Positions 5,362 through 25,215 of a stretch of DNA of 39,994 nucleotides are shown here, piece by piece. A program made the translations under genes and the position numbers. This DNA comes from a virus. Numbering within the stretch: position 1 is the stretch's first letter; each line of letters begins with the position of its first letter. Under the pieces are notes generated by a model. That model worked only from the letters and a program-made list of their open reading frames with translations. It was not told the DNA's origin and did no database searches. The DNA is taken from the IMG/VR virus record IMGVR_UViG_3300048998_000125, positions 1 through 39,994 of that record; one strand, 5' to 3'.

Positions 5362-5368
5362 GCTAATC

Positions 5369-7684
5369 ATGCTACCTACCGCACTCCCATTTCCGCTGTT
5401 CAGTGACGTAGACGGCCGGCCGCTCAACGGTGGCAGTATCTATTTCGGCGTCGAAAATCTGAACCCGGAGACGAATCCAATCGTCGTCTACTGGGACGCT
5501 GCCGGCACGCAACCAGCTTCCCAACCGATCAGCACGCTCAACGGCTACATCGTGCGCTCCGGCACCCCGGCGCGCGTGTACGCCAACAGCGCCTATTCCA
5601 TCACCGTGCGTAACACACGCGGCGAGCAGGTCTACACCGCGCCGAGTTCGTCGGCATTCGATCCCTCGTCGGCGCTGCTGGCATCGTTGGACGCCTATGT
5701 CCTGGCGTCGGCTGGCAAGGTGGTGAACTCCTTCGCCGCCCTGCGCGCGCTGAGCAAACTCGTCAACACCTATGCCTTCGTCACTGGCAGCGCCACCATC
5801 GGCGACGGCGGCGGCGGCGCCTTCCGCTACGACTCGACCGATACGACATCCACAGACAACGGCGTGAGCACCATCGTCGCAAGCGACGGCGGCCGCTGGA
5901 AGCTGTACCAGGGGATTCCTCGAGTAAAAGGCGTCTCGACGATTGCGATGGGTCTGAATTCGGCGACGGCTGAGACGACCGGTTACGAGAACATCGCGAT
6001 CGGCCAGGACACGCTGACCAACAACACCACGGCATTCGGCAACCTGGCCATGGGCCGCTACGCCCTGCAGAACGCGAATATCAAGGTGACCAATATCACC
6101 GGCTGCGCGAACAACGGATCCGGCCTGATCCGAGTCACCGCGCCGAGCCATGGTTTCAGCTGGACCAATTACGCAGTGGAAGTCATCATTTCCGGCGTGC
6201 TGGGTTGCACAGAAGCGAACGGAAGCTGGACGGCGACGGTCATCAACGCCAACACATTCGACCTGCAAAGCTCGGCATTCGTGCATGCCTACACGTCCGG
6301 CGGCACAGTGAAGGGACAGACCTACGTCGCGGGCTGGAACGTGGCGCTCGGCAACTACTCACTGCGCGCGCTGACCACGGGGTGGCAGAACACGGCTTGC
6401 GGCGTCTCTGCGCTGGCGAATAACACTTACGGCAATTTCAACACCGGCCTGGGCTACGGTGCGCTGCAGAGCAATATCAGCGGGTACGAAAACACTGCCG
6501 TCGGCACCATCTGCATGGTCTCGGGCGACAATTCCGGCCTTTTCCGAAACGTCGCGGTCGGCTTTGCCAGCTTGGGCGCGCTCGGGCAATTCGCGCTCGT
6601 CGCCGGTGCGAACAGTTACCAAAACGTCGCGGTCGGACACAACTCCGGCTCAGGTGTGCGCAACGGCACTGACAATGTGCTGCTCGGTTCGTCTTCCGGC
6701 CTCGGCATGCTTTCCGGCAGCCGAAACACATTCCTCGGTGCCAACACGCTTTATGCTGCGTCAGCTGCGGTCAACACCGACGACAACACGATGGTCGGCT
6801 ACAACTGCGGCACGGGGCTAACTTCTGGCAGTGGCAACACGTTCATCGGCTGCTCGGTCGCGCCGCCAGCCGCCGCTTGCAGCAACACGCTAATCATCGG
6901 CGCCGGATCAAGCGGCGCCAAGAAAATCATGGTCGTGAGCAGCAACACCGCCATGGGCTTAGACGCATGCTTCCCGAACCTGACATCTGGCGTCGATAAC
7001 ACGATGATCGGCCACCAGGCGGGCGGCCCACTGAACAGCGGCTCTAACAACACTGGCATCGGCGCTTATTCGCTTTTCTCGGTTACCACCGGATCGAACA
7101 ACAGCGGCATGAACGGCGGCGGGTTCAGCATCAGCAGCGGCTCTAACAACCTCATGCTCGGCCGCGATGCCGGATACACCACCAGCCCGTCGGGCAACAT
7201 CACCACGCAAAACAACGTGATCTGCTTGGGCGACAACAACATCGCGACCGCATACATCAAGGTCGCATGGACCGTTACCTCGGACAAGCGCGACAAGACC
7301 GACGTTCAGGACTTCGGGTACGGGCTTTCCTTCGTCAACGCGCTGCGCCCAGTGAAATTCCGCTGGGACGATCGGACGAAATATTGGGAGGAAGTCGAAG
7401 AGCGCGACGGCGAGGAAATCAAGCGCAAACACATCAAGCACAAACAGGACGGCTCGAAGGCTGACGAGAAGTTTACCGTCGGCTTCCTGTCTCAGGACGT
7501 GATCGCTGCGGAGAAGAAACACGGCGCGACCGACGGAAATCTGCTGATCGCTGACGACAGCAATCCGGATCTGCTGCGCATCACGGAAAGCAAGATGCTC
7601 CCGGCGCTGGTCAAGGCCGTGCAGGAGCTGTCGCTGCTGGTTCAGGAACAGGCGAAGCAGATAGCGGCGCTACAGCAAAAGTGA
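5369..7684 (+). CDS. Tailspike / tail fibre: P22 gp9-like head-binding N-terminus, NT-x-x-G beta-helix repeats, C-terminal peptidase S74 intramolecular chaperone
   Basis: ATG 5369 (M21 of track ORF 5309). The N-terminus LNGGSIYFGVENLNPETNPIVVYWDAAGTQPASQPISTLNGYIV parallels P22 gp9 [30 protein letters not shown]...QPLIINAAGKIV. There are dozens of G-x-x-NT-x-x-G repeats. TSDKRDKTDV (Ser codon 7280-7282) matches the S-D-x-R-x-K autocleavage site of endosialidase-type chaperones. Confidence 0.85.
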   Translation: MLPTALPFPLFSDVDGRPLNGGSIYFGVENLNPETNPIVVYWDAAGTQPASQPISTLNGYIVRSGTPARVYANSAYSITVRNTRGEQVYTAPSSSAFDPSSALLASLDAYVLASAGKVVNSFAALRALSKLVNTYAFVTGSATIGDGGGGAFRYDSTDTTSTDNGVSTIVASDGGRWKLYQGIPRVKGVSTIAMGLNSATAETTGYENIAIGQDTLTNNTTAFGNLAMGRYALQNANIKVTNITGCANNGSGLIRVTAPSHGFSWTNYAVEVIISGVLGCTEANGSWTATVINANTFDLQSSAFVHAYTSGGTVKGQTYVAGWNVALGNYSLRALTTGWQNTACGVSALANNTYGNFNTGLGYGALQSNISGYENTAVGTICMVSGDNSGLFRNVAVGFASLGALGQFALVAGANSYQNVAVGHNSGSGVRNGTDNVLLGSSSGLGMLSGSRNTFLGANTLYAASAAVNTDDNTMVGYNCGTGLTSGSGNTFIGCSVAPPAAACSNTLIIGAGSSGAKKIMVVSSNTAMGLDACFPNLTSGVDNTMIGHQAGGPLNSGSNNTGIGAYSLFSVTTGSNNSGMNGGGFSISSGSNNLMLGRDAGYTTSPSGNITTQNNVICLGDNNIATAYIKVAWTVTSDKRDKTDVQDFGYGLSFVNALRPVKFRWDDRTKYWEEVEERDGEEIKRKHIKHKQDGSKADEKFTVGFLSQDVIAAEKKHGATDGNLLIADDSNPDLLRITESKMLPALVKAVQELSLLVQEQAKQIAALQQK

Positions 7685-9590: not shown

Positions 9591-9731
9591 TTATATAGAT
9601 GACTCCCGCTTCTGAATTTTCTTTTTCAAGCGTGCGCGCTTCTTCGCTGGCTTGGATTTCGGCTTCGGCCGATAGGCCAGCACCTTGTCTGCGATCAGAT
9701 CGAGAGCGGGAGGCGGGACAGGCTTTTTCAT
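9591..9731 (-). CDS. 46-aa basic ORF inside the IS, translationally coupled to the transposase (ATGA)
   Basis: MKKPVPPPALDLIADKVLAYRPKPKSKPAKKRARLKKKIQKRESSI. Its ATG overlaps the transposase TGA. It is below the ORF-track size cutoff. Confidence 0.35.
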   Translation of the reverse strand: MKKPVPPPALDLIADKVLAYRPKPKSKPAKKRARLKKKIQKRESSI

Positions 9732-10648
9732 GCAATAAGTTCCTTATAGGTGATGCGCCGACCAGCGCACGCGGCAATAAAGCTGTCCAGCCGCGCCAGC
9801 GTCATGCGGCGCACGTTGCCATCATTGAGCCGGAATGTGAATTCGTTGACGTAGCGACCGATGTGTTTAGGGCTGGCGTGATGGTAGACGCCGTGCAGGC
9901 CGCGTTTCAAGACCGCCCACACGCTCTCAATGCCGTTCGTCGTGACGTTGCCGCGCGAGTATTCGCCGCCGCTGTGGTTGACGCTAGCGCTGGTGAAAAA
10001 CAGGCCATTCAAGCCGCGATAAGCCGCATGTTCGTCGGTGTGAAGCGTCGAGCCAGGTTCGATGTGCGTGTGGATGGCACGATGCAGGTTTGCGGTATTC
10101 ACATCCTTGACGTGCATGGCGCGGGTGCGACCGCCGCGCTCACGCATGCCGAGAACGGCTTGCTTTCCCACAGCGCCACGCCCGAGCTTCAATTTCTTGT
10201 GTTCATGCTTGTTCGCTTCTTTGCCGCCGATGTAGGTTTCATCGATCTCGACAATGCCGCTCAATACGGTCGGATCGTTGCCGCAGGCCTCGCGCAAACG
10301 CTGCAGGACGAACCATGCAGACTTTTGCGTGATGCCGATTTCCTTAGAAAGTTGCAGCGAACTGATTCCCTTGCGCGCCGTGACGAGCAAGTACATGGCG
10401 TAAAGCCATTTGTGCAGCGGCACATGACTGCGCTCGAAGATCGTGCCGGTGCGGACGGTGAAATCCTCTTTGCATTGATTGCAACGGTAGTAGCCGCCCT
10501 TGCGGGCCGTGATCCGCTCCCCGAGTCCGCAGACCGGGCAACGAACGCCCTGCGGCCACAAACGGCCTTCCAGGTACGTTCTGGCCGATTCCTGATCGGG
10601 AAACATCTGGAACAGTTCCAGCGTGCTGATGGTCAGTTTGTCATTCAT
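9728..10648 (-). CDS. IS1595-family (ISXO2-like) DDE transposase with N-terminal zinc ribbon
   Basis: 306 aa. It has the Zn ribbon CPVCG...YRCNQCK, an HTH-like segment ISSLQLSKEIGITQKSAWFVLQRLR, and the core IVEIDETYIGGK...LHTDEHAAYRGL...NGIESVWAVLKRGL...H typical of DDE_Tnp_IS1595. Confidence 0.9.
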   Translation of the reverse strand: MNDKLTISTLELFQMFPDQESARTYLEGRLWPQGVRCPVCGLGERITARKGGYYRCNQCKEDFTVRTGTIFERSHVPLHKWLYAMYLLVTARKGISSLQLSKEIGITQKSAWFVLQRLREACGNDPTVLSGIVEIDETYIGGKEANKHEHKKLKLGRGAVGKQAVLGMRERGGRTRAMHVKDVNTANLHRAIHTHIEPGSTLHTDEHAAYRGLNGLFFTSASVNHSGGEYSRGNVTTNGIESVWAVLKRGLHGVYHHASPKHIGRYVNEFTFRLNDGNVRRMTLARLDSFIAACAGRRITYKELIA

Positions 10649-10889
10649 GATTCCGCTCCGAGAAAATGTCAGCAGCTTCCCGCATCAGGCGGGACAGCAC
10701 ACGCTCCAAGTCTTGAGTCCCGGCAGCTTGCAGCGCTTGGAAAACAACCTGCGCGTTCGGGGAAGTGCCGCTCCAGCCGCCCTCTGGATGCGGCGAGAAG
10801 CGCACCACAAGGCCGCTGGGGCCGTGCCGCGCCTCGCGGCCTTCGACTGTCCAGCGGCCCCGCCAGCCGCGATTCGGGTGATTGCCCAT
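10641..10889 (-). CDS. IS passenger ORF, 82 aa, weak HicB/DUF1902-like flavour
   Basis: Its start overlaps the upstream stop (TAATG), and its stop overlaps the transposase start by 8 nt (ATGAATGA). WTVEGREARHGPSGLVVRFSPHPEGGWSGTSPNAQVVFQAL is vaguely antitoxin-like. Function is not established. Confidence 0.5.
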   Translation of the reverse strand: MGNHPNRGWRGRWTVEGREARHGPSGLVVRFSPHPEGGWSGTSPNAQVVFQALQAAGTQDLERVLSRLMREAADIFSERNHE

Positions 10890-11149
10890 TACTCTTCGAT
10901 TTCAATGATTTCGGAGTCAAGACCAGCATCGGTAATTGTGTATTCGATGGTCGCGCCAGAAATCGAGTCGAAAGAACGAATTTCGATTGTTGCCGGGTTG
11001 CCTTCGGCCAGTTGGAATTCGGCGTCAGCGGCCCACGCACGCAGCATGTCAGTCGTGAAGTAGTCGCCGCCTTTTTTATGGTTCGCGGCCAGAAATTCCT
11101 TGATTTCGCTCAGACCGGCTTGATTAACCGTGTAGTTTGTAACTTTCAT
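10889..11149 (-). CDS. IS passenger ORF, 86 aa acidic protein, unknown function
   Basis: ATG 11149 lies 7 nt after AGGAG. MKVTNYTVNQAGLSEIKEFLAANHKKGGDYF...EIIEIEE. GC content is visibly lower than the surroundings. It is the first gene downstream of a consensus promoter. Confidence 0.7.
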   Translation of the reverse strand: MKVTNYTVNQAGLSEIKEFLAANHKKGGDYFTTDMLRAWAADAEFQLAEGNPATIEIRSFDSISGATIEYTITDAGLDSEIIEIEE

Positions 11150-11182
11150 TTTTCTGCTCCTGCCCCTGTTCCCGAGGCGCGG

Positions 11183-11199
11183 TGGATTCGTCGAATCCA
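11183..11199. promoter_or_regulatory. Perfect 17-bp palindrome TGGATTCG-N-CGAATCCA between IS promoter and first passenger gene (operator candidate)
   Basis: tggattcgtcgaatcca has 8-bp perfect arms. It lies in the 5' UTR, about 10-25 nt downstream of the predicted -10. Confidence 0.5.
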
Positions 11200-11206
11200 T
11201 GGCTTG

Positions 11207-11234
11207 ATTATAGGCCTATATTTGAGGGAGTCAA
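11207..11234 (-). promoter_or_regulatory. Near-consensus sigma70 promoter driving IS passenger genes and transposase
   Basis: The minus strand reads TTGACT (11234-11229), a 16-nt spacer, then TATAAT (11212-11207). Confidence 0.7.
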
Positions 11235-11294
11235 GTATTATTTTCGACTCAAGGCAAGTATTTTTAACTAAAGGGAGCTATGTATATAATTCCC

Positions 11295-11302
11295 CTTAAT
11301 TT
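11295..11302. repeat. Target-site duplication CTTAATTT (right copy)
   Basis: Identical to 9578-9585 and abuts the right IS inverted repeat. Confidence 0.85.
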
Positions 11303-11417: not shown

Positions 11418-11590
11418 ATCTGTCACAAATCTGTCACAAGGCGGGCTGGAACCCGCATGAACTTGGTCCCGCCGACAGGAATCGAATCTGTCACATCGAT
11501 AATTCAAGGGAAAACATGATGCTAAGTCCTTGATTATTATCCCCCAAGCCTGCATGAATTGCCGTGCGCTGTCACAAAAACTGTCACAAA
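11418..11590. repeat. Putative attP region: five same-orientation copies of CTGTCACA(A) (integrase arm-type site candidates)
   Basis: AATCTGTCACA occurs at 11418-11428, 11429-11439 and 11485-11495. CTGTCACAA occurs at 11569-11577 and 11581-11589. The region lies directly downstream of the int stop. Confidence 0.6.
11464..11492 (-). other. Candidate attP core: GACAG-N9-CTGTC inverted repeat with tRNA 3'-end-like sequence (TTCGATTCC ... ACCA)
   Basis: The minus strand reads GACAGATTCGATTCCTGTCGGCGGGACCA, which is T-loop-like TTCGATT followed by a 7-nt acceptor-like segment, A and CCA. The T-stem closing pair is A.C, so this is not a functional tRNA end as it stands. Confidence 0.35.
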
Positions 11591-12756
11591 ACGGCTACTC
11601 CCTTCGGGCTGGCCAGCATCGCGTCCAGTTTTGAAATCTCCCGGTCGTTTGCCTCGCCGTCGATCCACTTCGAATAGACCTCGAAAAACATCCTGGTATC
11701 GGTGTGGCCCATTTGCCGCGCCACGTACGCCGGGTTCATGCCGGCATGCAGGCACATGGTGGCGAACGAGTGCCTGGTCTGCTTGGCGTCGCGGTCCCGG
11801 ATGCCGAGCGCCTTGAGTGCCGGCCGCCAAACCAGCTGCACCGCCGGCCCTGTGTCGAGCAACCGCTCGCCGGTATATGGGTTACTGAACACGTAGCCGC
11901 TTTTCTTCAAGAAGGTGTGTTTCTTCTGCCGCTGCAGCGCCGCCAGCGCGCGGCTGTTCAAATCGAGGTAGCGGCTCCGGTGCGTCTTGGCATCCTTGTC
12001 GATCGCGCGCACACGCGCCGCGTCAATGAGGCATTTCTTGCGCCGGAAGTCGATGTTCTGCCAGGAGACGGCAATCTCTTCTGACGGGCGCGGCCCGGCG
12101 AAGAACGCGAATTCGAAGTAGTTGAACCACTGCTCGTCGTAGTGGCTCTTGATGTGTGCTAGCACGAGTTCGATTTCGTCGATGTCCAGCGGGTCCGGCT
12201 CGGGCTTTTGATACTTCCGCGTCGGAATCTCGGCCGTGATGTCGATCGCTATTTTCTTCATGCGCAGCGCCAGGCCGAACACGCCGCGCGCCGGAGTCAT
12301 CAGGTTGTTGAAGGTCTTGGCGTTCTTGACCTTCTTGCGCGCGAGTAGCAAGGCCAGTTCTTCGTAGGTGATCGACGCGATCTGCCGCTGCTCGAATTCC
12401 GGGTAGAAGTGGCGCTGCAAGGTATTGCGATATTCTTTGATGGTGGTGGCCGCCAGCTCGCCGGCGACAATCGTGAGCCATGTGGCAGCGGCGTCGCCGA
12501 ACGTCACGCCGACCGGCGAATCCACCTTTTTCAGGTAGGGCGAATCTGGAAAGTCGGCTGCAAAGTCCTCGATCGTGTATTTTTCAATATCGATCGACTT
12601 GACGATCCGGTCTCTCAGCTTGGCCGCGGCCCGGAGATTGGCAGGCGTGGGACTGATGGCGATTCGCTCGCGGTGCCTTCGTCCTTCCCAGTTGAAGGAC
12701 ACGAGGATCGACGCCTTCCGCGCATAGATCCCTTCGAATTGCTCGTCTCGACCCAT
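11584..12756 (-). CDS. int: Tyrosine integrase (P4/DUF3596-arm type)
   Basis: The N-terminal arm-binding segment is GIYARKASILVSFNWEGRRHRERI. The C-terminal catalytic region is TRHSFATMCLHAGMNPAYVARQMGHTDTRMFFEVYSKW (R..H-x-x-R..H..Y). ATG 12756 is preferred over GTG 12765 because of GGAGG spacing. Confidence 0.9.
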   Translation of the reverse strand: MGRDEQFEGIYARKASILVSFNWEGRRHRERIAISPTPANLRAAAKLRDRIVKSIDIEKYTIEDFAADFPDSPYLKKVDSPVGVTFGDAAATWLTIVAGELAATTIKEYRNTLQRHFYPEFEQRQIASITYEELALLLARKKVKNAKTFNNLMTPARGVFGLALRMKKIAIDITAEIPTRKYQKPEPDPLDIDEIELVLAHIKSHYDEQWFNYFEFAFFAGPRPSEEIAVSWQNIDFRRKKCLIDAARVRAIDKDAKTHRSRYLDLNSRALAALQRQKKHTFLKKSGYVFSNPYTGERLLDTGPAVQLVWRPALKALGIRDRDAKQTRHSFATMCLHAGMNPAYVARQMGHTDTRMFFEVYSKWIDGEANDREISKLDAMLASPKGVAVL

Positions 12757-12938
12757 TTGTCCCACGCCTCCAAGCTAAATTGCCGCACATTGTCCGGCGC
12801 CCATTTCCAGTGAATGCCCTCGACCAGGTGGCCGTCGGCAACCAGGTGATTGAACGCGCCCTGCGAGCGCCCGGTCAGCTCAGCGATTTTGCCGACGGTA
12901 ACCCATTCGACTGGGCGGTAATTGAAAACCTTGTCCAT
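12615..12938 (-). CDS. xis: Excisionase-like DNA-binding protein
   Basis: ATG 12938 follows AAGGAG. PVEWVTVGKIAELTGRSQGAFNHLVADGHLVEGIHWKWAPDN...EAWDKW matches the excisionase (DUF1233-type) pattern. The last ~45 aa overlap int in another frame and look like read-through. Confidence 0.7.
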   Translation of the reverse strand: MDKVFNYRPVEWVTVGKIAELTGRSQGAFNHLVADGHLVEGIHWKWAPDNVRQFSLEAWDKWVETSNSKGSMRGRRRSSCPSTGKDEGTASESPSVPRLPISGPRPS

Positions 12939-12941
12939 ATC

Positions 12942-13280
12942 TTACTCCTTCGCAACTGCCGGTCCGGCGGCCAGCGGCGCGCTGTCCGGCTGCGCGCAAA
13001 TGCAGTCCTTGCAAAAATGTGCATGCTCCCAGCGGTGGCCGCGTGGGCAGCGTTCCTTGATATCCGCCCAAGGATCGACCTGAACAGCGGCCCGGCCCAG
13101 CCGCCTGCAATTGGCAAACCCGTCGCACTGGGCGTCCAGCTTGCACTCGCACACCGGCTGGGCTAGGGCGCGCAGCTCTGCAATCTCCGCCGCCTGGTTG
13201 TCGATCAGCCGCAGCACCGCCTGCTCGAATATCGACAGATCGGTGCCGGACAGGCGCGCGCGGATTTCTTGTTCGGTCAT
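12942..13280 (-). CDS. Hypothetical Cys-rich protein, 112 aa
   Basis: ATGA coupling to the upstream gene. Ten Cys (CECK...C..FANC...C....H...H.C.DCIC) suggest metal binding. Confidence 0.6.
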   Translation of the reverse strand: MTEQEIRARLSGTDLSIFEQAVLRLIDNQAAEIAELRALAQPVCECKLDAQCDGFANCRRLGRAAVQVDPWADIKERCPRGHRWEHAHFCKDCICAQPDSAPLAAGPAVAKE

Positions 13281-13648
13281 CGTTTCCCTTTCGAGTCGTT
13301 CAACTTAAGTCGAGGTCCGCGGCTGTATAGCCCTGCGCATCCAGTCGCTACCAAATAGCCTTCCTCGACCAATTCCGACACAGCTTCAATGGTGAAGCCG
13401 GGTAGACCGGCGCTACCGCCGTAGTCGACAAAGTAGCGACCGCTAGGCTGTCCTTTTGCGTCGCCGCCTTCGTACACCGAACGCCGTACGTCTGCCCGCA
13501 GCGCGTCAATGACCGCCTTCTTTTCGGGTATCGGTGATTCAATCCGAGCAATTCCAGCCGCGACGCCCAGCGCATAGGCGTCGTTGAACACGCGCTCGAT
13601 TGACGGCGTGCCGGTGTAGGCCCGCAAATATCGTTCGAACCGAGTCAC
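13277..13648 (-). CDS. Hypothetical protein, 123 aa
   Basis: GTG 13648 follows AAGGAA and forms a GTGA overlap with the upstream micro-ORF. The track ORF from 13954 is an Arg-rich shadow extension. Confidence 0.55.
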   Translation of the reverse strand: MTRFERYLRAYTGTPSIERVFNDAYALGVAAGIARIESPIPEKKAVIDALRADVRRSVYEGGDAKGQPSGRYFVDYGGSAGLPGFTIEAVSELVEEGYLVATGCAGLYSRGPRLKLNDSKGKR

Positions 13649-13758
13649 GATATTTTCCTTCCGATGATTGCGGCGACCACGAAGCCGAGGATGTGAATTG
13701 CGGCGCCGGCCAGCTCGGGCAGCAGGACGAGAGCGGCGATGGCGAGTGCGGTCAGCAT
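13645..13758 (-). CDS. 37-aa hydrophobic membrane peptide
   Basis: MLTALAIAALVLLPELAGAAIHILGFVVAAIIGRKIS. Its start overlaps the HNH stop (ATGCTGA) and its stop overlaps the next start (GTGA). Confidence 0.4.
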   Translation of the reverse strand: MLTALAIAALVLLPELAGAAIHILGFVVAAIIGRKIS

Positions 13759-14183
13759 GCCGACACCTCGTCGAATAATTCCAGGTTGTTCTTCCGCTTG
13801 CGCCTGGTCTCCCGGGCGTTGACGGCGTGATGCTGCGCGTCATACCGCAAGTGGCAGCGCTGGCACCACGCTCGCAGGTTCTCCGGATCGTTGTTCTCCG
13901 GCGTGTGGTCCAGGTGCGCGATGGTGAGCACGATGCCGACCATCTTTCCGACATTGAAGTCCGAAAACCGGCACCGGCCGATGAAGGCGCCGGTATCCGC
14001 GTCGAATACTTCTGCGGCCTCGGTCATGTAGGTGTTTGCGTCCCGGTCCACGCCGCGAGCGATCAGCTTCCCGTGCGGCGCTTTGCATTTTTCGCAGCGG
14101 TAACCGGCGCGCGCCAGAATCTCCGCCCGAATAAATTTCCAGTTGGCCGGATAGCGGTGCTTGTTCTCGGGCTTTATGGGCAT
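13752..14183 (-). CDS. HNH endonuclease
   Basis: ATG 14183 follows GGGAGA. CEKCKAPHG...IAHLDHTPENNDPENLRAWCQRCHLRYD is a classic HNH / zinc-finger signature. 143 aa. Confidence 0.85.
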   Translation of the reverse strand: MPIKPENKHRYPANWKFIRAEILARAGYRCEKCKAPHGKLIARGVDRDANTYMTEAAEVFDADTGAFIGRCRFSDFNVGKMVGIVLTIAHLDHTPENNDPENLRAWCQRCHLRYDAQHHAVNARETRRKRKNNLELFDEVSAC

Positions 14184-15149: not shown

Positions 15150-15689
15150 TCATGCAAACATCCTTGTTTGCGGTTGGTCGGTAGCTTCCTGCCGCGAGTT
15201 GGTCAGCGGGACGTAGTAGCCCTCGATGCCGGACTGGTGCAGCGCCGCTGCGTTCTGCGAACCGTAGGCAACCAATACCGACGGGGCACCGGCTGGACCT
15301 GCAGCTGAGCCGCCCGGAAGGTGGAACTTTATGCGGCCGGCAATGAACAGCATCGCGTCGGCCTTTTTCCAGCACCACTCCTGAAATGCTCGCGTTTCCG
15401 TTCGGGCGAAAATCAGCGCGATGCCATTGCCGTGCGCCGCCATGCGCTTGAGGAACTTCTCGGCGTGCGGCCCGTAGGGTGGATTGCACCAGACTCGGCC
15501 ATGCCATTCGCGGGATAGCCCGTCGTCCTCGATCGTGAATTGCGCCGCCGCCGTGCGCCATGGCTGGTGCTGGCTGGCGCAAGGGTCTAAGTCGAACGGG
15601 CCGAGCGCTTCGAGCAAACCGGGGGGGGTAAGCCAGTCGTGCGTGGTCGCGCCGCTACCGTCGCCGCCGGTTTCAAAGGTCGAATTCAC
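15150..15689 (-). CDS. Phage Dam-type DNA N6-adenine methyltransferase
   Basis: GTG 15689 forms a GTGA overlap with the upstream gene. DWLTPPGLLEALGPFDLDPCA...DGLSREWHGRVWCNPPYG carries the NPPY motif and matches the phage Dam family pattern. Confidence 0.85.
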   Translation of the reverse strand: MNSTFETGGDGSGATTHDWLTPPGLLEALGPFDLDPCASQHQPWRTAAAQFTIEDDGLSREWHGRVWCNPPYGPHAEKFLKRMAAHGNGIALIFARTETRAFQEWCWKKADAMLFIAGRIKFHLPGGSAAGPAGAPSVLVAYGSQNAAALHQSGIEGYYVPLTNSRQEATDQPQTRMFA

Positions 15690-16279
15690 TGCTCGCACCC
15701 CTTCCCGACCTGCCCAGGCTGCCCCGGCGCAGTGAATTTTTTCCAGTGAATCCAGCCGCGGTCCGGGCAATGGAATCCCCACTCGCGTACCACCGGCCCG
15801 GTCAGGAAAAGCGTCCAGCAGTCGCCGTCGTGCAGCTCAATGCGGTGCGGCGACGCGCCCCAGCGGAACGTCCAGTCGCCGGCCTTCATGATCCTGCGCT
15901 CGACCACTCCGCCGGCGAGGATGCGATGCTGGGTGTAGGAACCGCGCAGCACCAGCGTGAAGTTAAACAGCCATGGGTGGCCATGGTGCGCCCGGTCGTC
16001 GTCGCTGCGCTTGAAGCAATGCAGGTAGGCGTTGGCGACCTTGTTGCGTGCGATAAGCCACCAGCGCAGCAGGTACGGTTCGGACGGGCTGCCGATGATG
16101 AAGTCCGGCGCCCGGCGCTCGGCGCGGGTAATCACCGCGACGTCTTCCGGATCGGTGACGGCGCCCATGTTGTACCAGCGGTACCCGCCTTCGTTCTCGA
16201 TGCCGCACATGCATTCGATGTCGCTGCGCGCGGTCTCGTCGGCCAGTTCGAAGGCTAGCTCTGTCGTGCGGTCGGTCAT
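15686..16279 (-). CDS. Conserved phage protein with HHGHPW (cupin-like metal-binding) motif, function unknown
   Basis: ATG 16279 forms an ATGA overlap with the C5-MTase stop. YLLRWWLIARNK..YLHCFKRSDDDRAHHGHPWLFNFTLVLRGSYTQH...GASPHRIEL...WTLFLTGP..REWGFH. Confidence 0.6.
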   Translation of the reverse strand: MTDRTTELAFELADETARSDIECMCGIENEGGYRWYNMGAVTDPEDVAVITRAERRAPDFIIGSPSEPYLLRWWLIARNKVANAYLHCFKRSDDDRAHHGHPWLFNFTLVLRGSYTQHRILAGGVVERRIMKAGDWTFRWGASPHRIELHDGDCWTLFLTGPVVREWGFHCPDRGWIHWKKFTAPGQPGQVGKGCEQ

Positions 16280-18354
16280 GCTGCTCTCACGATCTGGCGC
16301 TCGTGCGCGAAGTTGGCTTGAATCAGCGCGCGCGCCATCGGCGGGCAGACGCTGTTGCCGCACATCCGGACTTGCGCGCTCTTGGTCAGCGGTCGCCACG
16401 GGATGCTGTGGATGTCCTCCACCTGCTCACCGTCGACGAACAGCTTTTCCCAGTCCGGAACGCTGTCGATGATGTAGTCCGCATTGAAGCCTTGCGCGCG
16501 GAACAGTTCCGGCGGCGCCAGCATGCGCAGTCCGATGTCGACGATCTGATAGTCCTGGCCCGCGATTGTCACCAGGCCGTAACGGTCCTTGGTGGTGACC
16601 GTGTGCAGCGGCTCCTCAAGGCGCGGGTCTTGGTCGGTGCCGTAATACTTCAGCAGGAAGGCGCGGACCTCGGCGTGGTGCAGTCCGCCCGCACTGACCG
16701 TGCTCAGCGGCTCATCGGCTGCTGCGGCGTTGCTGGTGCCACGTAGTTTGACTAGGTGACTGGCCACCAGCCGCGACTTCCCGCCGCCGCCAGCCGTCAC
16801 GGTACCGAGCGGGTCATCGGCACCGTGCCCGACGCTCTGGCCCATGTCGCGCTGAATGTGAGCCGTAACAAGGCTGTGGTGATCGCTGGACGTCACGGTG
16901 CCGATTGGGTCTTCCAGGTCGGACCCGACCACGCCGGTATAATGCTTGGCCAGGAACGCCGATACCAGCGCCTGGTTGCCGGTGCCGGCGACCGTGCCGA
17001 ATGGGGTTTCAATGTCCTTGTGCCCTTGGCCCCAGCGCTTGACGCCGGACGGGGAAACGTCCGCATGCGCCGCATCGACCAGCAACGCTGAAACGACGGC
17101 TGCCTTGCCGCTCCCGACAACTGTTCCGAGCGGCTTTTCGATGTCCAGAGCACGCGGCGCTTGGCCATCACGTTCGCCATAACCAGTCTGCACCATTGTT
17201 GCGGCAACGACGGCGGTGTCGTATTTCGAGGTCGCGGTAGCGGTCGGCTCGTCCACGCCACGCGGCCGGCTCTGACCAGCCCGGCCGCCGACGCCGGTCA
17301 ATACGGCCGTCATGACAGCTCTATGGTTTTCCGTCGGCAGCGTGCCTAACGGTTGATTGGCGGATACGGGTTTCCCAGAGTAGGCCGGACCGCCTTGGCC
17401 AAGAATGACCGGCACTATGGTTGGCTCCACCACGGAAAAGCCGTTGCTGGACATGATTGTGCGGACCGGCTCGTCTGAACCCCAAACGTTGGGCCCTCTG
17501 CCGGTCGTCTTGCTGTTAGCCGTATTGACAATGAAAGGGCTGGGGGAATTCACTACGTAGCGCATGATCCCCTTGGCGATCCGGCGCAGCGTGGCCTCGG
17601 CAAGCGGCTTCTTGCGGTCGAAGATCGACGGGCAGGGTAGGGACCAGTCAATGCACTCAGCGGCCGTGCGGTACGGCTGCAGCTTGCCGGCCTTGACGCC
17701 CAGGCTGTCTGGCGCGCCGTGCGTCGGCTCCGGCCACTGGATTGGTATCCCATCGCGGCGGGCCACCATGAAGAAGCGTTTTCGAATCGTTGGCGTGTCG
17801 TGATCGCATGCGCGCAGTTCGCGCCAGTCGACATCGTAGCCGTGCCCCTTCAACTGGCGCACGAAGCTTTCGAAGGTCTTGCCCTTCTTGGCCGGGTCAG
17901 GCATCCAGGTTTCTTGACCGTCGACCACCTTTACCAGCAGCGGGCCCCAGGTCTTAAATTCTTCGACGTTTTCCAGCATGATCACGCGCGGCTTGCACTT
18001 CGCGGCCCAGCGCAGGGTCACCCAGGCCAGCCCGCGAATCTTCTTCTCGACCGGCTTGCCGCCCTTGGCCTTGGAGAAGTGCTTGCAGTCCGGCGACAGC
18101 CACACCAGACCGACAGGCTGGTTGCCAGTGACCTTGATCGGGTCGACGTCCCAGACGCTTTCGCACAGGTGCTTTGTGTGCGGGTGATTCGCGGCGTGCA
18201 TAGCAAGCGCTTCCGGGTCGTGATTGATCGCGATGTCGACCGGCCGCCCAAAAGCTTGTTCCAGGCCTTCACTGGTGCCGCCGCCGCCGGCGAAGTTGTC
18301 GATTATCAGTTCGTCGGCGAGGCCGAGCGGTAACGTGAATTCGTCGCGTTTCAT
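16276..18354 (-). CDS. DNA (cytosine-5) methyltransferase with nine tandem TRD-like modules
   Basis: Motif I is DNFAGGGG, motif IV SPDCKHFS, motif VI ENVEEF and motif VIII TIRKRFFMVA. Near the C-terminus are RMLAPPELFRAQGF and motif X GNSVCPP. Residues ~293-600 contain nine repeats of [DE]-x-P-[LIF]-x-T-[VIL] ... LV. Confidence 0.9.
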   Translation of the reverse strand: MKRDEFTLPLGLADELIIDNFAGGGGTSEGLEQAFGRPVDIAINHDPEALAMHAANHPHTKHLCESVWDVDPIKVTGNQPVGLVWLSPDCKHFSKAKGGKPVEKKIRGLAWVTLRWAAKCKPRVIMLENVEEFKTWGPLLVKVVDGQETWMPDPAKKGKTFESFVRQLKGHGYDVDWRELRACDHDTPTIRKRFFMVARRDGIPIQWPEPTHGAPDSLGVKAGKLQPYRTAAECIDWSLPCPSIFDRKKPLAEATLRRIAKGIMRYVVNSPSPFIVNTANSKTTGRGPNVWGSDEPVRTIMSSNGFSVVEPTIVPVILGQGGPAYSGKPVSANQPLGTLPTENHRAVMTAVLTGVGGRAGQSRPRGVDEPTATATSKYDTAVVAATMVQTGYGERDGQAPRALDIEKPLGTVVGSGKAAVVSALLVDAAHADVSPSGVKRWGQGHKDIETPFGTVAGTGNQALVSAFLAKHYTGVVGSDLEDPIGTVTSSDHHSLVTAHIQRDMGQSVGHGADDPLGTVTAGGGGKSRLVASHLVKLRGTSNAAAADEPLSTVSAGGLHHAEVRAFLLKYYGTDQDPRLEEPLHTVTTKDRYGLVTIAGQDYQIVDIGLRMLAPPELFRAQGFNADYIIDSVPDWEKLFVDGEQVEDIHSIPWRPLTKSAQVRMCGNSVCPPMARALIQANFAHERQIVRAA

Positions 18355-19630: not shown

Positions 19631-19923
19631 CAGGTGCTCCCTTCGGTGGTGGAAAACTCAATAAACGGTCGGCGGATAATCTGATTCAGCCGTGCAATCG
19701 CCTCGGGATCGCGGTCGAACTCGGCGCGGGATTTCACCTCGCACAGCGTGCGCACCACGTGCACCGCCGACGGTTCGTCCTTGACCTGCAGGAACCGCCA
19801 GAACAGCGGATCGCGGCAGCGGAGGGCAACCCAGTCGACAGGCGCGTAATGGCCATGGTCAGCCGCCGATTTCTTCCCGGCGCTTCTTGGCCAGGTCGTA
19901 CAGCTCGTTTTGCGTCTCGACAT
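19630..19923 (-). CDS. Hypothetical protein, 97 aa
   Basis: The only in-frame start is ATG 19923, which overlaps the recT 3' end by 65 nt. The conserved-looking core is DPLFWRFLQVKDEPSAVHVVRTLCEVKSRAEFDRDPEAIARLNQII. Confidence 0.55.
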   Translation of the reverse strand: MSRRKTSCTTWPRSAGKKSAADHGHYAPVDWVALRCRDPLFWRFLQVKDEPSAVHVVRTLCEVKSRAEFDRDPEAIARLNQIIRRPFIEFSTTEGST

Positions 19924-20875
19924 CTTCGACGGTACGGATTTCGTCCATCACGATGTCGAGGATTTCGCCGCTGGTGCTGGCAGCGATCTGCGCTTTAAGT
20001 GCCGCAATCGAGTCGTGCTGCTGGTCGCCTGCGCCGCCGCCGCTGTCGCCGCCGATCTGGCTTTGCTGCTCGACTTCGGTAAAGTTGCCGTCGATGATCG
20101 AACCGTTTTGCTGGCTGATCCCGGCCTCGGCCATTTCATCAATGCCGACGGCGCGCTGCATTTCGATGGATACCGGCAGGAACTTGAACAGGCGACGTAC
20201 TACGGTCTTGATCGCCATGGCTGGATAGTCCGTCACCCAGGGGCCGTTGTCGGCGGACTTGCTGCGCGCCCGGATGCCATCCACTTCGGCGCGCGACATG
20301 ACGTCGAACTGGATGCCGCCGTCTTTCAGCTTGGCCACGGCGTAGACGAACTTCAACAGTTCCGGCTTGCTGCGATTCGGGTTTTGCCAGTCCGGCTCAT
20401 GATTAAGCTTTGCGTCCAGGCCGAGCACGCAGTCGAATTTGTCGCCCTCGTAGACGGCGCGCGCGTCGATGCTCACGATCTGGCCGGACCGGCGCGCCAG
20501 GTCGATCATGCCGCGATAGCCGATGATGACTTGCGCTTCGGTGCGAGTTACCTTCCACTGCCCGCCAACCTTTTCCCGCTTGTCGAACGGCAGGATATAG
20601 GCATGGCCGAGCGCATTACCCGGCTCAAGGCCCAGCTGCGCGCACTGGATTACGGCGCCGAGGAACGACATCGGGTCGCACTGCGCCAGCTTCGGCACCT
20701 TGCGCATTTCGGTGGTGGCGATGCGCGCCATACGCTCAGCGGTCATGTGACGCGGCAGGGCGACCTTGAGCTGCGCCTGCACCTTCGGGCTGGCCATCAG
20801 GTGCGCCAGGTCTTTGGGTTGTTCCTCGGCTGCTTCCTTGCCGGTGGCAACGGTTTTCAATGCGGATGCACTCAT
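19859..20875 (-). CDS. recT: RecT-family single-strand annealing recombinase
   Basis: ALPRHMTAERMARIATTEMRKVPKLAQCDPMSFLGAVIQCAQLGLEPGNALGHAYILPF is a typical RecT core. It lies immediately downstream of the YqaJ exonuclease. Confidence 0.9.
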   Translation of the reverse strand: MSASALKTVATGKEAAEEQPKDLAHLMASPKVQAQLKVALPRHMTAERMARIATTEMRKVPKLAQCDPMSFLGAVIQCAQLGLEPGNALGHAYILPFDKREKVGGQWKVTRTEAQVIIGYRGMIDLARRSGQIVSIDARAVYEGDKFDCVLGLDAKLNHEPDWQNPNRSKPELLKFVYAVAKLKDGGIQFDVMSRAEVDGIRARSKSADNGPWVTDYPAMAIKTVVRRLFKFLPVSIEMQRAVGIDEMAEAGISQQNGSIIDGNFTEVEQQSQIGGDSGGGAGDQQHDSIAALKAQIAASTSGEILDIVMDEIRTVEDVETQNELYDLAKKRREEIGG

Positions 20876-20876
20876 T

Positions 20877-21866
20877 TCAATTTCCTTTTTTTAACCGCAG
20901 CACGCGGGTGGTTGAAACCTTGGTGTATTGCCGGGCGATGTCCGGCTGCTCTTCCTGCAATTTTTTGACTTCCAGCCGGGCGGCCGACTGCGCCTTCCAG
21001 GTTGCGATTTCCTGGCCGCCGAATTTCAGAACGGCGAAGGGGTTGATGAAGTCGGCAATGTGGAACTTGAGCCGCTCTTCCTCCGCTTCAAGCGCCGATA
21101 TGCGCGCCTTCACGTCGGCAAGCTGGCGCACCATGACGGCGACCTCCGGCGAAGTGTCTACGGACAGGCCGTTGTCGAGCGGGAAAAGCAGCTTCACGTC
21201 ATCGAAGCGGACCGTGTCCGGCGGAGTGTCGCCGAGCACGCACTCGTTCCAGAATTCGACTTCCTTGGCGCGCATCGCCGTGATGGTCTCGTCGTCGCGC
21301 CGCACCCAGTAAATGTCGACGTCGTCAAAGCTGCGCAGCGCGGCAACCAGGCACAGTTGGCGATTGCCAGGCGTGACCATCAAGCCGTGCATGAACTGGG
21401 CGGCATACTCGATCGGTACGTCCTCGGTGTTCTCGGCGCCCCATTTCTTCCTGGCGAAGCCGGTGACGCTCTTGGCGTCGCAGTTGACCACTTCGTTTTC
21501 CAGCTCGACGACCTCTTCGCCGATCTCGACCGCGCCGGTCAAGCGCAGCTCGAAGTCGATCTCGCACGTCATGAATGGATGTTCCGGGTCGATGTACCGC
21601 GCATTGGTGGCGAGCAGCTCGACGGTGACGCCCTGGTCGCGCAGCTTGTCGATCACCATGTCGCGGATGAACGGCTCAAGCTTGTGACCGCGGTCGAACA
21701 TCCGCTGGCGCACGTCATCGATCACCTCCGGTTCGGCGCGGCCAGTCTTTGCCAGCCACAGTTCCACCGGCGTCTTGTACGGGCTGACGCCGAGGATCGC
21801 AGCGGCATCACTGCCGCCAATGTATTTCGAGCGGTCATGCACAATAGGATCGGTAACGGCGTTCAT
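20877..21866 (-). CDS. YqaJ-type (lambda-Exo-like PD-(D/E)XK) recombination exonuclease
   Basis: ATG 21866 (M22 of the track ORF). The N-terminal signature is YIGGSDAAAILGVSPYKTPVELWLAKTG. 329 aa. Confidence 0.85.
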   Translation of the reverse strand: MNAVTDPIVHDRSKYIGGSDAAAILGVSPYKTPVELWLAKTGRAEPEVIDDVRQRMFDRGHKLEPFIRDMVIDKLRDQGVTVELLATNARYIDPEHPFMTCEIDFELRLTGAVEIGEEVVELENEVVNCDAKSVTGFARKKWGAENTEDVPIEYAAQFMHGLMVTPGNRQLCLVAALRSFDDVDIYWVRRDDETITAMRAKEVEFWNECVLGDTPPDTVRFDDVKLLFPLDNGLSVDTSPEVAVMVRQLADVKARISALEAEEERLKFHIADFINPFAVLKFGGQEIATWKAQSAARLEVKKLQEEQPDIARQYTKVSTTRVLRLKKGN

Positions 21867-21967
21867 AGAATCGGCTCCCTCAGCGCGCGCGCTGCCTCGC
21901 GGATCGACGCAAGACGCCGCCGGCCGCAAGCGCGGTAGTAGAAGTAAAGGCGGACGAAAGCTTTCAT
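21863..21967 (-). CDS. 34-aa micro-ORF, translationally coupled on both sides
   Basis: MKAFVRLYFYYRACGRRRLASIREAARALREPIL, with ATGA overlaps at both ends. Confidence 0.3.
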   Translation of the reverse strand: MKAFVRLYFYYRACGRRRLASIREAARALREPIL

Positions 21968-22119: not shown

Positions 22120-22259
22120 AGCGCACCCCGCACCAGCCCGACCGCATAGCCGACGACGAAGCCGGTCCACGCTGCCGAGGTCAGGAAGCCGGCAATGAAT
22201 GCCAGCTCGATCTGCGTGGCGAAGTGCAGGCGGTTCCAGTGGGCGCGTAGGCGGGTCAT
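22116..22259 (-). CDS. 47-aa membrane peptide
   Basis: ATG 22259 forms an ATGA overlap. It has a single TM segment, IELAFIAGFLTSAAWTGFVVGYAVGLV. Confidence 0.45.
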   Translation of the reverse strand: MTRLRAHWNRLHFATQIELAFIAGFLTSAAWTGFVVGYAVGLVRGAL

Positions 22260-23449
22260 AGCGGCTCCCCGAACATTTCCTCGCCCATGCTCATCATCTT
22301 TTCGAAGAGGAAGTTCTGCATATCGCGCGAGCAATCGCGGTATTTGTGCTTGAGGTGCAGGAACTCTTCGACCAGCACCGACGCCACTTGCTTGGTGCCG
22401 CCAAGATGGAAAGCGCGTTCGGCGATGTAGATGGTGTCGTTCTCAGCCAGCCCGAGGGTGCCTTCGCCAAGCGATTCAATAACCTTGATCGGATATGTGA
22501 TGTTGAAGCCGATCTTGGAGCAGAAAGTCTCTGCACGCTCCAGCGTTTTGCGCTGGACCTCGGTCAAAGTAATTTCGACCGGCGCGATTTTTTGCTTGGT
22601 CTTGTCTTCCCATACTTTGATGGCAGTCGGGTTCACTTTCGTGAGCCGGTCGCAGGTCAGCTCACCCACTACGCGGAGGAAAGTTTCGCTTGGGCTGACA
22701 CCGTATTGGTGAAAGTCGAGGACGTGTTCCTGATACGAATCGTCTGCCGTGAGAATCGATTTCAGGAACAGCACATCGTCGGACTTTGCCACTGCGGAGG
22801 CGATGCGCTCCAGCGGCTCCCATTGGTGTTTGATAGTCCGATCTTCGGTCAGGTCGAGCGTCTGATTATCGTTGTAGGTGTACATGCATTCGCGGGGCAT
22901 CTGCCCGACTCGCACACCGCGATAGAAGTACGCGCTGCCGCCGCGACGTCGAATCTCCATGCTGCCGCAGACCAGGTAAGGCTCGTCTTCGAGGATGTAT
23001 TTGTGGCGCTCGTAGAAGATTTCCTCGAACGGTTTCCCCACGATGACGATATCAGTCTGGTCTGGCATGCCTTCCGGCATCGACATCATCTTCTGCCCGG
23101 TTCCCGATTCGTCCATGCAGTTACAAGCGATTTCGCGATACGCCATCCACAAGTCCCATTGGGCGCCCAAGTGAGTGGTGAAGCCGATATCGACCGGCGC
23201 GGCATCGGCCACAGCCATGGTGACGAATTTGAATTCTTGTCCGCGCACCGCACCGACGCGCACGCCGAATTTGATTTCAGTGGTGCCGGAAAAAATCGTG
23301 ACTTCGTGGCCGGTGCGCAGCAGTACGGCGATGGCATATTTCAAGCCGGTGCCGAAAAAGCCGATAGGATTCTCGCCTTCCTTGACCGACACGCCGAACG
23401 TGGAAATAGCGGCGATGTCGATTTCGCCTTGGTTGGTGAAGACGATCAT
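22256..23449 (-). CDS. Hypothetical 397-aa early protein with N-terminal G-x-x-G-x-G-hK nucleotide-binding-like motif
   Basis: ATG 23449 forms an ATGA overlap (M16 of the track ORF). PIGFFGTGLKYAIAVLL resembles the GHKL ATP-lid motif. No other motif was recognised. Confidence 0.6.
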   Translation of the reverse strand: MIVFTNQGEIDIAAISTFGVSVKEGENPIGFFGTGLKYAIAVLLRTGHEVTIFSGTTEIKFGVRVGAVRGQEFKFVTMAVADAAPVDIGFTTHLGAQWDLWMAYREIACNCMDESGTGQKMMSMPEGMPDQTDIVIVGKPFEEIFYERHKYILEDEPYLVCGSMEIRRRGGSAYFYRGVRVGQMPRECMYTYNDNQTLDLTEDRTIKHQWEPLERIASAVAKSDDVLFLKSILTADDSYQEHVLDFHQYGVSPSETFLRVVGELTCDRLTKVNPTAIKVWEDKTKQKIAPVEITLTEVQRKTLERAETFCSKIGFNITYPIKVIESLGEGTLGLAENDTIYIAERAFHLGGTKQVASVLVEEFLHLKHKYRDCSRDMQNFLFEKMMSMGEEMFGEPL

Positions 23450-23763
23450 TGCTCGCCCTCCATGCTGGCGATTGCATCCAGCTCGGCGCGACAATTGATC
23501 GCCTTGTCGAGGTCCGCTTTCATCACTGCGAACAGTGCATCCTTGTCGCCGGCCAAGATGGCGCGCACCATCGGCACGCCGTCGCCGGTTTCGTAGCCGA
23601 CCATGTCAGCAGCCAGAAAGGCGGCTTCCTTGTCGGTCAGGCTCAGGCGCATGGCCGCTGCGTTGACTTCGGTCAGCTTGATGAGGTGTGCGTTTTCCTG
23701 GGCTGCGCTGGTGAACCGTGGTTCATGCCGGGGAAAACCAAATTGACGGTTAATGCTTTGCAT
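23446..23763 (-). CDS. First gene of the leftward early operon, 105 aa, unknown function
   Basis: ATG 23763 follows GGAAGAGAGGAAAAAA and lies ~39 nt downstream of the predicted PL start. Confidence 0.65.
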   Translation of the reverse strand: MQSINRQFGFPRHEPRFTSAAQENAHLIKLTEVNAAAMRLSLTDKEAAFLAADMVGYETGDGVPMVRAILAGDKDALFAVMKADLDKAINCRAELDAIASMEGEQ

Positions 23764-24522: not shown

Positions 24523-25215
24523 TCAAAGGCGGTTTTTGATTTTCCGTGCCGGCACTGGATGTGCGACATAGTACATCCACACCACATCTTCTTCGGTGGT
24601 GTTGATCACCTCCGGATCGTTGTAGCTACCCAGCCGAATGCCGCCGCGCCGCGAAAGCAACCGCTTGAGCATCGTCCTGCCATCTTTCAGCCGCACCAGC
24701 ACGTCGTCTTCCAGCTCTGGAGTGGTGCCTGGCTCGACCAAAGCGTATTCCCCAGGGTTGAATCGCGGCACGCCGGACACGCCCTCGATCGGCACCAGAA
24801 AGGCATTCGGATCGCCGCTGGCCACCTCGGCATAGACGTCGGACGCACCGGCAGGGTAATCACCATCACCCCAAATCCGATCCGGTATCCCCGCCATCGC
24901 CTTGCCATACGCCGGGATCTTGCGCATGCGGTCCGTGCCGGCCGGGAAGGCGCCCGCGATATCGTCATGCGCGCGCGCCACGCGCTCGGCTTCTCGCGGT
25001 TCGCGGCCGTGCAGCAGCCATTGCGCGGTAATGCCGAGCACTTCGCAGACCCGCGTCAGATTCTTGCCGGCGATTTCCTTGATGCCGCCGTCCTCGACGC
25101 TTTTCTCCCAGTCGGTAACCGTTGCGTTCGAAACCGGTACCAATCTGGCAAAGGCGGTCTTGCTCAGCACAGCCGCTTCCCTGGCTTCTTTCAGCCTTTG
25201 TTTCCACTCTTCCAT
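24523..25215 (-). CDS. cI: CI-like repressor (XRE HTH + S24 LexA-like peptidase domain)
   Basis: The HTH is LSKTAFARLVPVSNATVTDWE. The C-terminal segment FLVPIEGVSGVPRFNPGEYALVEP...DDVLVRLKDGRTMLKRL parallels the S24 Ser...Lys architecture. The gene is divergent from cro, with three operators between them. Confidence 0.85.
   Translation of the reverse strand: MEEWKQRLKEAREAAVLSKTAFARLVPVSNATVTDWEKSVEDGGIKEIAGKNLTRVCEVLGITAQWLLHGREPREAERVARAHDDIAGAFPAGTDRMRKIPAYGKAMAGIPDRIWGDGDYPAGASDVYAEVASGDPNAFLVPIEGVSGVPRFNPGEYALVEPGTTPELEDDVLVRLKDGRTMLKRLLSRRGGIRLGSYNDPEVINTTEEDVVWMYYVAHPVPARKIKNRL

Follow-up and report, generated by a model that had tools for sequence, protein, structure and literature searches.

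The window analysed here is the whole 39,994-nt stretch of viral DNA from IMG/VR record IMGVR_UViG_3300048998_000125 (positions 1 to 39,994). Its minus strand encodes a C5-cytosine DNA methyltransferase (C5-MTase) of 692 aa, in which the variable region appears to have expanded into an array of nine modules resembling target recognition domains (TRDs), all served by a single catalytic core. The protein is read here as an orphan phage enzyme whose multi-TRD array would recognise several target motifs and provide broad self-protection against restriction. The probability of this reading is put at roughly 50%. The enzyme joins an already known, very large and partly characterised family of phage proteins, of which the modular grammar, with its recombination of module heads and tails, appears to be under-described. 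The gene and the two parts of its catalytic core are located as follows.

16276..18354, minus strand: complete coding sequence of the C5-MTase in the open reading frame (ORF) listing, 692 aa plus a TGA stop.
17482..18354, minus strand: catalytic N-terminal part (aa 1-291), with motifs I, IV, VI and VIII and a conserved PLAxxTLRRIAxG helix region.
16279..16530, minus strand: C-terminal catalytic part (aa 609-692), with motif IX (LRMLAPPELFRAQGF) and motif X (CGNSVCPP); predicted local distance difference test (pLDDT) of 83-98 in AlphaFold2 (AF2).

The ATG is preceded by AGGGA approximately 7 nt upstream, and the N-terminus (MKRDEF...) agrees with the consensus of the aligned homologues. The protein contains one complete catalytic core, consisting of motifs I-VIII and IX-X. 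Motif I, the AdoMet-binding FxGxG element, is D19-N-F-A-G-G-G-G26 and lies within a match to Pfam PF00145 (C-5 cytosine DNA methylase, Dcm superfamily; E=4.1e-23) that covers residues 17-205 only, or profile positions 3-167 of 324. A match to phrog_116 in PHROG, labelled 'DNA methyltransferase' (E=4.3e-100), runs across residues 16-687. The catalytic Pro-Cys of motif IV (S87-P88-D89-C90-K-H-F-S94) is present as a PDC variant rather than PC, with P88 and C90 invariant across 141 diverse sequences. Motif VI (E128-N129-V130), motif VIII (T189-I-R-K-R193, with R191 and R193), motif IX (R610-MLxPxELxxAQGF, LRMLAPPELFRAQGF / RMLAPPELFRAQGF) and motif X (G666-N667-S-V) are, like motif I, invariant or nearly so in both homologue alignments.

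An AF2 model from an alignment of 141 diverse representatives reached a pLDDT >90 over most of the N-terminal part of the core. A Foldseek search with the core returned M.HaeIII (3ubt), M.HhaI (2zcj), DNMT1 and the prophage MTase 3g7u at E values of about 1e-10; it recognised the catalytic core only and gave no match for the array. The formation of 5-methylcytosine (m5C) on DNA is predicted for the window enzyme by analogy with homologues, for which it has been seen in restriction-protection assays. The N-terminal 96 residues of the C5-MTase (16279-18354 of the window, minus strand) also match, weakly (E=0.0017) and in fold as well, PDB entry 8yf3, a DNA cytosine C5-carboxymethyltransferase that uses carboxy-S-adenosylmethionine (Cx-SAM). 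Groups other than methyl are installed by some phage C5-MTase-like enzymes.

The array lies between motif VIII and motif IX. A canonical C5-MTase has one unit in this position and the window enzyme has nine. An earlier sequence-only reading had listed nine heptads as module cores, and all nine are present, starting at residues 294, 333, 368, 406, 449, 481, 513, 547 and 580; successive starts are 39, 35, 38, 43, 32, 32, 34 and 33 aa apart. The interval it assigned to the array, 16555-17478, corresponds to residues 293-600 and is right except at one end, as the ninth module extends slightly further, to approximately 16531. The modules are 32-43 aa each, diverged, and take the form [DE]xPxxT[VIL]-loop-LV. 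They are given below in the order of the protein.

17365..17481, minus strand: module 1 (aa 292-330), GSDEPVRTIMSSNGFSVV..., the most divergent, type 'L'.
17260..17364, minus strand: module 2 (aa 331-365), SANQPLGTLPTENHRAVM...GVGGRAGQSRPR, a hybrid in which a type-I head is joined to a different tail.
17146..17259, minus strand: module 3 (aa 366-403), GVDEPTATATSKYDTAVV...VQTGYGERDGQAPRAL, with a head of type 'J'.
17017..17145, minus strand: module 4 (aa 404-446), DIEKPLGTVVGSGKAAVV..., type 'G', with the longest linker.
16921..17016, minus strand: module 5 (aa 447-478), DIETPFGTVAGTGNQALVSAFLAKHYTGVVGS, type 'D', orthologue of module 2 of ARM81mr_p29.
16825..16920, minus strand: module 6 (aa 479-510), DLEDPIGTVTSSDHHSLVTAHIQRDMGQSVGH, a type 'E' head followed by the tail of a neighbouring type.
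16723..16824, minus strand: module 7 (aa 511-544), GADDPLGTVTAGGGGKSRLVASHLVKLRGTSNAA, type 'A'.
16624..16722, minus strand: module 8 (aa 545-577), AADEPLSTVSAGGLHHAEVRAFLLKYYGTDQDP, type 'B', mostly penultimate across the family.
16531..16623, minus strand: module 9 (aa 578-608), RLEEPLHTVTTKDRYGLVTIAGQDYQIVDIG, type 'C', which closes the array family-wide and immediately precedes motif IX.

The repetition is far beyond that of shuffled sequence. The pattern [DENQK][DEQKT]PxxT[VILA] occurs nine times in the protein; 5000 shuffles gave 0.055 on average and never more than 2. With leave-one-out hidden Markov models (HMMs), eight of the nine units scored higher than any of the 500 shuffles made from each. 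The weakest was unit 1; a module HMM built from homologues recognises it at 22.6 bits (independent E-value 3.7e-9). Pairwise identity among the nine units ranges from 16 to 47%, with a mean of 26%. In each of these modules of approximately 35 aa, an invariant Pro and a Thr-[Val/Ile/Leu] core are combined with a ß-strand and with a loop that is specific to the type. The loop that follows the P...T-[VIL] core is variable and often Gly-rich. At the DNA level, no tandem repeat or recent duplication was found in the array by Tandem Repeats Finder and a direct-repeat search. Similarity is confined to patches of 21-35 nt, with 74-86% identity, at the DEPLxTV core and spaced 96-102 nt apart. The module duplications are thus old, as only these short core patches remain.

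The grammar of the array was derived from 1168 modules of 120 close homologues. At least 13 module types were found; members of one type share an identity of 0.67-0.85, compared to 0.32 for modules of different types. All types keep P5 and T8 of the module unchanged, and the loop is what distinguishes them: positions 11-15 have an entropy of 1.7-2.6 bits between types against 0.2-0.5 bits within a type. The high within-type identity holds for all types and points to purifying selection on each. The 120 proteins contain 57 module arrangements, and that of the window protein is unique among them. The order of types is broadly conserved, with presence or absence of single types and local swaps, for example IHGDEFABC versus IHGFDEABC. 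Heads (PxxT[VIL] and loop) and tails (strand and linker) recombine, such that a single head can be joined to as many as five different tails, and a single tail to several heads. In the window protein, modules 2 and 6 are head/tail hybrids of this kind relative to the family consensus.

The two ends of the array behave differently. Conservation is 85% in the N-terminal catalytic part, 75-79% in modules 5-9 and 73% in the motif IX-X region; modules 1-4 are more variable, at 57% identity with 71% alignable. Type B (GGxHxAEVRAFLxKYYG) is penultimate in 86 of 166 members of the wide family and type C (PLHTVTTKDRFGLV) ends the array in 102 of 116. The variable part of the arrays across the wide family holds at least 47 further clusters besides these two. 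The last two modules (8 and 9) are constant family-wide and probably a scaffold, not TRDs in their own right.

By comparison among homologues, nine modules is no exceptional number, as thousands of phage and prophage homologues carry 3-12. A word-indexed search returned at least 8000 homologous proteins at E<=1e-10, and an exhaustive search of 50%-identity cluster representatives returned 8389 clusters at E<=1e-3, 2693 of them at E<=1e-30. The best 120 homologues are 53-71% identical to the window protein, 572-828 aa in length, and mostly from Oxalobacteraceae, other Betaproteobacteria and metagenomes. By the module HMM, the close homologues carry 6-12 modules with a mode of 9, and their length follows the number of modules N as 371.6 + 35.2 x N (r=0.91). 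The best 150 diverse representatives carry 1-12 modules with a mode of 6, which is an undercount where modules have diverged. Named phages with such arrays include Burkholderia phage BgManors32 (8 modules), Pectobacterium phage ZF40 (gp21, 8), Pseudomonas phage Lana (8), Paracoccus phage Pyei1 (Pyei1_p05, 6-7), Aeromonas phage phiARM81mr (ARM81mr_p29, 5) and Bacillus phage phi105 (3). The Lana protein, gp71 (1047 aa; L006, 547-3690), has an intein-like insert of approximately 420 aa within motif IV (FSPDC|FPAST...VVHN|CTHFS). Several family representatives of approximately 900-1190 aa probably carry the same kind of insert.

The relatives for which activity has been reported are the Paracoccus and Aeromonas enzymes studied by Dziewit, Radlinska and co-workers. 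They belong to the large (approximately 550-800 aa) orphan m5C MTases of proteobacterial phages and prophages (phrog_116), namely JCM7686_0772, JCM7686_2655, Pyei1_p05, ARM81mr_p29 and ARM81ld_p31, and share with the window protein full-length homology and the catalytic motifs. They have the same module array and shared types, notably those matching window modules 5-9, and are likewise orphan genes in the early or replication regions of temperate phages. By tblastn, each over 97% of the query, identity to the window protein is 45.0% for phiARM81mr, 39.9% for phiARM81ld and 39.2% for Pyei1. Four of the five modules of ARM81mr_p29 are orthologous to window modules among 5-9. Pyei1_p05 is in turn approximately 69% identical to JCM7686_0772 and JCM7686_2655 (PMC6536676), and judged via Pyei1 the window protein is about 39% identical to these Paracoccus prophage enzymes. 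The window protein differs in its own nine-module arrangement, and the broad protection reported for the two JCM7686 and the ARM81 enzymes is predicted here.

In the assays of Dziewit et al. (2014), two 2.1-kb genes for prophage m5C MTases of Paracoccus aminophilus, JCM7686_0772 and JCM7686_2655, were introduced into E. coli, where their expression left DNA partially protected from 16 of the 28 restriction enzymes tried (PMC3925955). Those partly blocked were AluI (AGCT), BsuRI (GGCC), Bme1390I (CCNGG), EcoRII (CCWGG), NciI (CCSGG), Hin6I (GCGC), HpaII and MspI (CCGG), TaiI (ACGT), XhoI (CTCGAG), PvuII, PauI, BglI, EcoO109I, HpyF10VI and CaiI, the protection being at the sites named or at longer ones that include them. 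Sites that were cut, with no protection, were CGCG, TCGCGA, GATC, GGNNCC, CCWWGG, CTAG, CATG, GANTC, CCGCTC, ACGCGT and CCATGG (PMC3925955). The same group termed the phage m5C enzymes of approximately 700 aa, including those of Aeromonas ARM81, widespread and relaxed in specificity (PMC5537653, PMC6536676). Tandem modules are not mentioned in the three accounts (PMC3925955, PMC5537653, PMC6536676). The protected sites can be reduced to roughly 6-8 discrete palindromes (AGCT, GGCC, CCNGG, GCGC, CCGG, ACGT and CTCGAG), a number that would be close to that of the modules. As these palindromes are discrete and several sites containing CC or CG are untouched, several specificities seem to fit better than a single short motif that is loosely recognised. 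A reading with 'CC' as the only target was rejected, given that AGCT, ACGT, GCGC and CTCGAG are protected and GGNNCC and CCATGG are not. A paper on a prophage 'rRNA methyltransferase' was also dropped as a lead, since the enzyme there is of the MT-A70 adenine type.

In the enzymes of Bacillus phages SPR, phi3T, rho11s, H2 and SPbeta, the subject of work in the Trautner laboratory, each TRD has been genetically mapped to its target. Such mapping sets the Bacillus enzymes apart from the window family, in which the modules are putative TRDs. The sequence-only reading had likened the window array to these SPR-type enzymes, and the likeness holds for layout: M.SPRI, M.Rho11sI and M.H2I also have tandem units of approximately 40 aa between motifs VIII and IX and one catalytic core. 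On inspection of their sequences, the units (VYDSNGIATTLTSQ..., VYSPDGVSPTLTTMG..., VYNSNGLSPTLTTNKG...) follow the pattern ...sPTLTt... with a P/S-T-[LIV]-T core, about 42-46 aa apart. The last Bacillus unit, DDEPAFTVNTIDRHGVAI, directly precedes motif IX and is strikingly like window module 9. The Bacillus enzymes have 3-4 units, compared to nine in the window protein and up to 12 in its family. Homology between the arrays is a different matter and was not detected by module HMM and hhalign comparisons. The resemblance is of pattern only, as far as the sequences tell, and the window array most likely expanded independently. The window enzyme may work like the SPR-type enzymes by analogy; its membership in their family is not supported by sequence. 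The SPR-group enzymes are themselves phage-borne orphans countering host restriction (PMC12707154, PMC8936443). They methylate their sites fully (PMC8936443), in contrast to the partial protection given by the homologues of the window protein (PMC3925955).

A possible parallel is with the canonical TRD of M.HhaI and M.HaeIII, which runs Loop 1 - TL - Loop 2, with a Gly-rich recognition loop followed by a ß-strand (PMC2790894). On this layout, each window module would correspond to 'TL + Loop 2 + strand', and the linker before it could be Loop 1. The T-[VIL] dipeptide is found in all nine window modules, with the T invariant across types, and would parallel the TL of the canonical domain. The PF00145 profile is nearly indifferent to the modules: in single-module constructs its score shifts by -0.4 to +1.9 bits, and constructs with one module or none differ by 2 bits or less. 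A phmmer search of PDB with the C-terminal 148 aa gave no relevant match.

These observations suggest the following model. Modules 8 and 9 would form the constant base of a small domain beside motif IX. Modules 1-7, each with its preceding linker, would be alternative elements for recognition, of which one at any given time would engage the single catalytic domain, so that one enzyme would methylate several short, mostly palindromic motifs. Phage DNA made in the cell would then carry protection in advance against many Type II restriction systems. Modules may be gained, lost and re-paired in their heads and tails through in-register recombination, by which the repertoire would diversify between phages. 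A stronger form of the model is offered tentatively: each variable module (up to approximately 7 here and approximately 10 elsewhere), with its linker as Loop 1, would specify its own motif, and re-pairing of heads and tails would create new specificities, all independently of the SPR type. Of the multispecific enzyme first proposed, what stands is the C5-MTase itself, the repeats in the position of the TRD and the homologues that protect many unrelated sites. An exceptional number and a sequence homology to SPR are not supported, and the last two modules are probably no independent TRDs.

Several results weigh against a multispecific array. The module HMM gave no significant match to M.SPRI, M.Rho11sI or M.H2I (E>=1.1), and hhalign of the window family against the Bacillus family aligned motifs IV-VIII only, with a probability of 75.6%. 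A 16-sequence module profile matched no solved TRD or other structure in PDB. AF2 gave no usable tertiary model of the array, the pLDDT being 25-67 with the alignment of 141 diverse representatives, and below 35 across residues 402-473, in the region of module 4; with 78 close homologues the array (residues 246-605) was below 50. The accounts of relatives cited above contain no module-to-motif assignment for any member of the family. A Sinorhizobium homologue was inactive in E. coli (PMC5537653), and the authors of the protection assays themselves speak of 'relaxed specificity', with protection partial at every positive site (PMC3925955). The model also requires that eight idle modules be kept clear of the active one.

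The strongest of the alternatives is that the nine modules fold together as one ß-hairpin DNA-binding surface, a composite domain of relaxed specificity that would recognise a very short motif loosely and/or lend processivity. Module number would then tune affinity and not the number of target motifs. One ß-hairpin per module is predicted by AF2, at the low array pLDDT given above (25-67), and both the interchangeable heads and tails and the in-register loss of internal modules are as in solenoid-type repeat proteins. Protection that is partial at all positive sites speaks for such a surface, but the choice of sites is harder to reconcile with it: AGCT, ACGT, GCGC and CTCGAG are protected without containing CC, and GGNNCC, CCATGG and CGCG are fully cut (PMC3925955). 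The loops, moreover, are strongly type-specific and conserved, which is not required of a purely structural repeat. A composite domain is accordingly held to be possible, though on the unlikely side.

'Pseudo' TRDs have been described for some Bacillus phage enzymes, and the window array could similarly be mostly silent, with one or a few modules (e.g. those nearest motif IX) reading DNA and the others surviving as relics in a mono- or oligo-specific enzyme. This would suit the low conservation of modules 1-4, the first unit that is barely recognisable within the protein, and the existence of short relatives such as the three-module phi105 homologue. It is nevertheless improbable, as all types, at 0.67-0.85 identity among their members, show signs of purifying selection, and many unrelated sites are protected by multi-module homologues (PMC3925955). 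Least probable by far is that the array serves a different chemistry or substrate, such as a non-methyl group (e.g. carboxymethyl from Cx-SAM) or an RNA or single-stranded DNA target: the weak N-terminal match to 8yf3 (Foldseek rank 17) and an uncharacterised, translationally coupled ORF downstream speak for it, but M.HaeIII, M.HhaI and DNMT1 match equally well or better in Foldseek, no CmoA-like gene was seen among the annotated neighbours of the C5-MTase, and homologues alone in E. coli block m5C-sensitive restriction enzymes (PMC3925955).

Were the modules to recognise DNA independently of one another, a single small gene of the phage would neutralise many Type II systems at once, which would help to explain the host range of temperate phages. 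Should the stronger, combinatorial form be true, the family would comprise by far the most multispecific DNA methyltransferases known, and a natural, widespread 'master-key' device against restriction. The 57 arrangements in 120 homologues, together with the thousands of distant relatives, are a natural mutant series for decoding the way in which the TRDs of C5-MTases read DNA. These natural variants could also show how one catalytic domain makes use of alternative TRDs, a structural question that is not known to have been answered since the studies of Bacillus phages in the 1980s-90s. The modules could also serve as a parts list for engineering methyltransferases of chosen specificity. Should the array instead prove to be a repeat that binds DNA without specificity, the gene would be just one ordinary methylase of a common phage family.

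The gene belongs to the early-left operon (recombination/integrase) of what looks like a temperate phage, and the window may be the genome of that phage in complete or nearly complete form. Portal, major head, tail-spike and internal-virion proteins are encoded on the plus strand. A betaproteobacterial host, Oxalobacteraceae-like, is suggested by the taxa in which the MTase has its closest homologues. The annotated genes of the operon are the following.

24523-25215, minus strand: CI-like repressor.
20877-21929, minus strand: RecE/YqaJ.
19859-20875, minus strand: RecT.
15686..16279, minus strand: 197-aa ORF directly downstream of the C5-MTase, matching phrog_4786 (labelled 'cysteine dioxygenase'; E=2.9e-48).
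15150..15782, minus strand: Dam-like phage N6-adenine MTase, two genes downstream of the C5-MTase (PF05869, E=2.3e-11; TIGR01712 below cut-off).
11584-12765, minus strand: integrase.

The start of the 197-aa ORF overlaps the stop of the C5-MTase as ATGA, which suggests translational coupling of the two. This ORF has no sequence match in Pfam, NCBIfam or PDB. With the Dam-like enzyme in the same operon, the phage carries both a cytosine and an adenine methylase. No restriction endonuclease gene adjoins the C5-MTase among the annotated neighbours in the window. Elsewhere in the window, two minus-strand ORFs (22256-23494, 412 aa; 13277-13954, 225 aa) had no match in the Pfam scan and two plus-strand ORFs (9599-11299, 566 aa; 1157-2455, 432 aa) had none in the PHROGs scan.

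In homologous loci, the MTase is likewise found between the recombination genes and the integrase. The next gene in homologous prophage loci (L011-L013, 6854-7516 / 5124-5786; L010, 7082-8311) encodes a Lar restriction-alleviation protein (PF14354) or a phosphoadenosine phosphosulfate (PAPS) reductase (PF01507). As one or the other follows the MTase, an anti-restriction role fits, and these loci are consistent with an anti-restriction or DNA-modification gene cluster. A PAPS reductase is also annotated beside the MTase homologue in Escherichia phages Flotzy and Eeyore.

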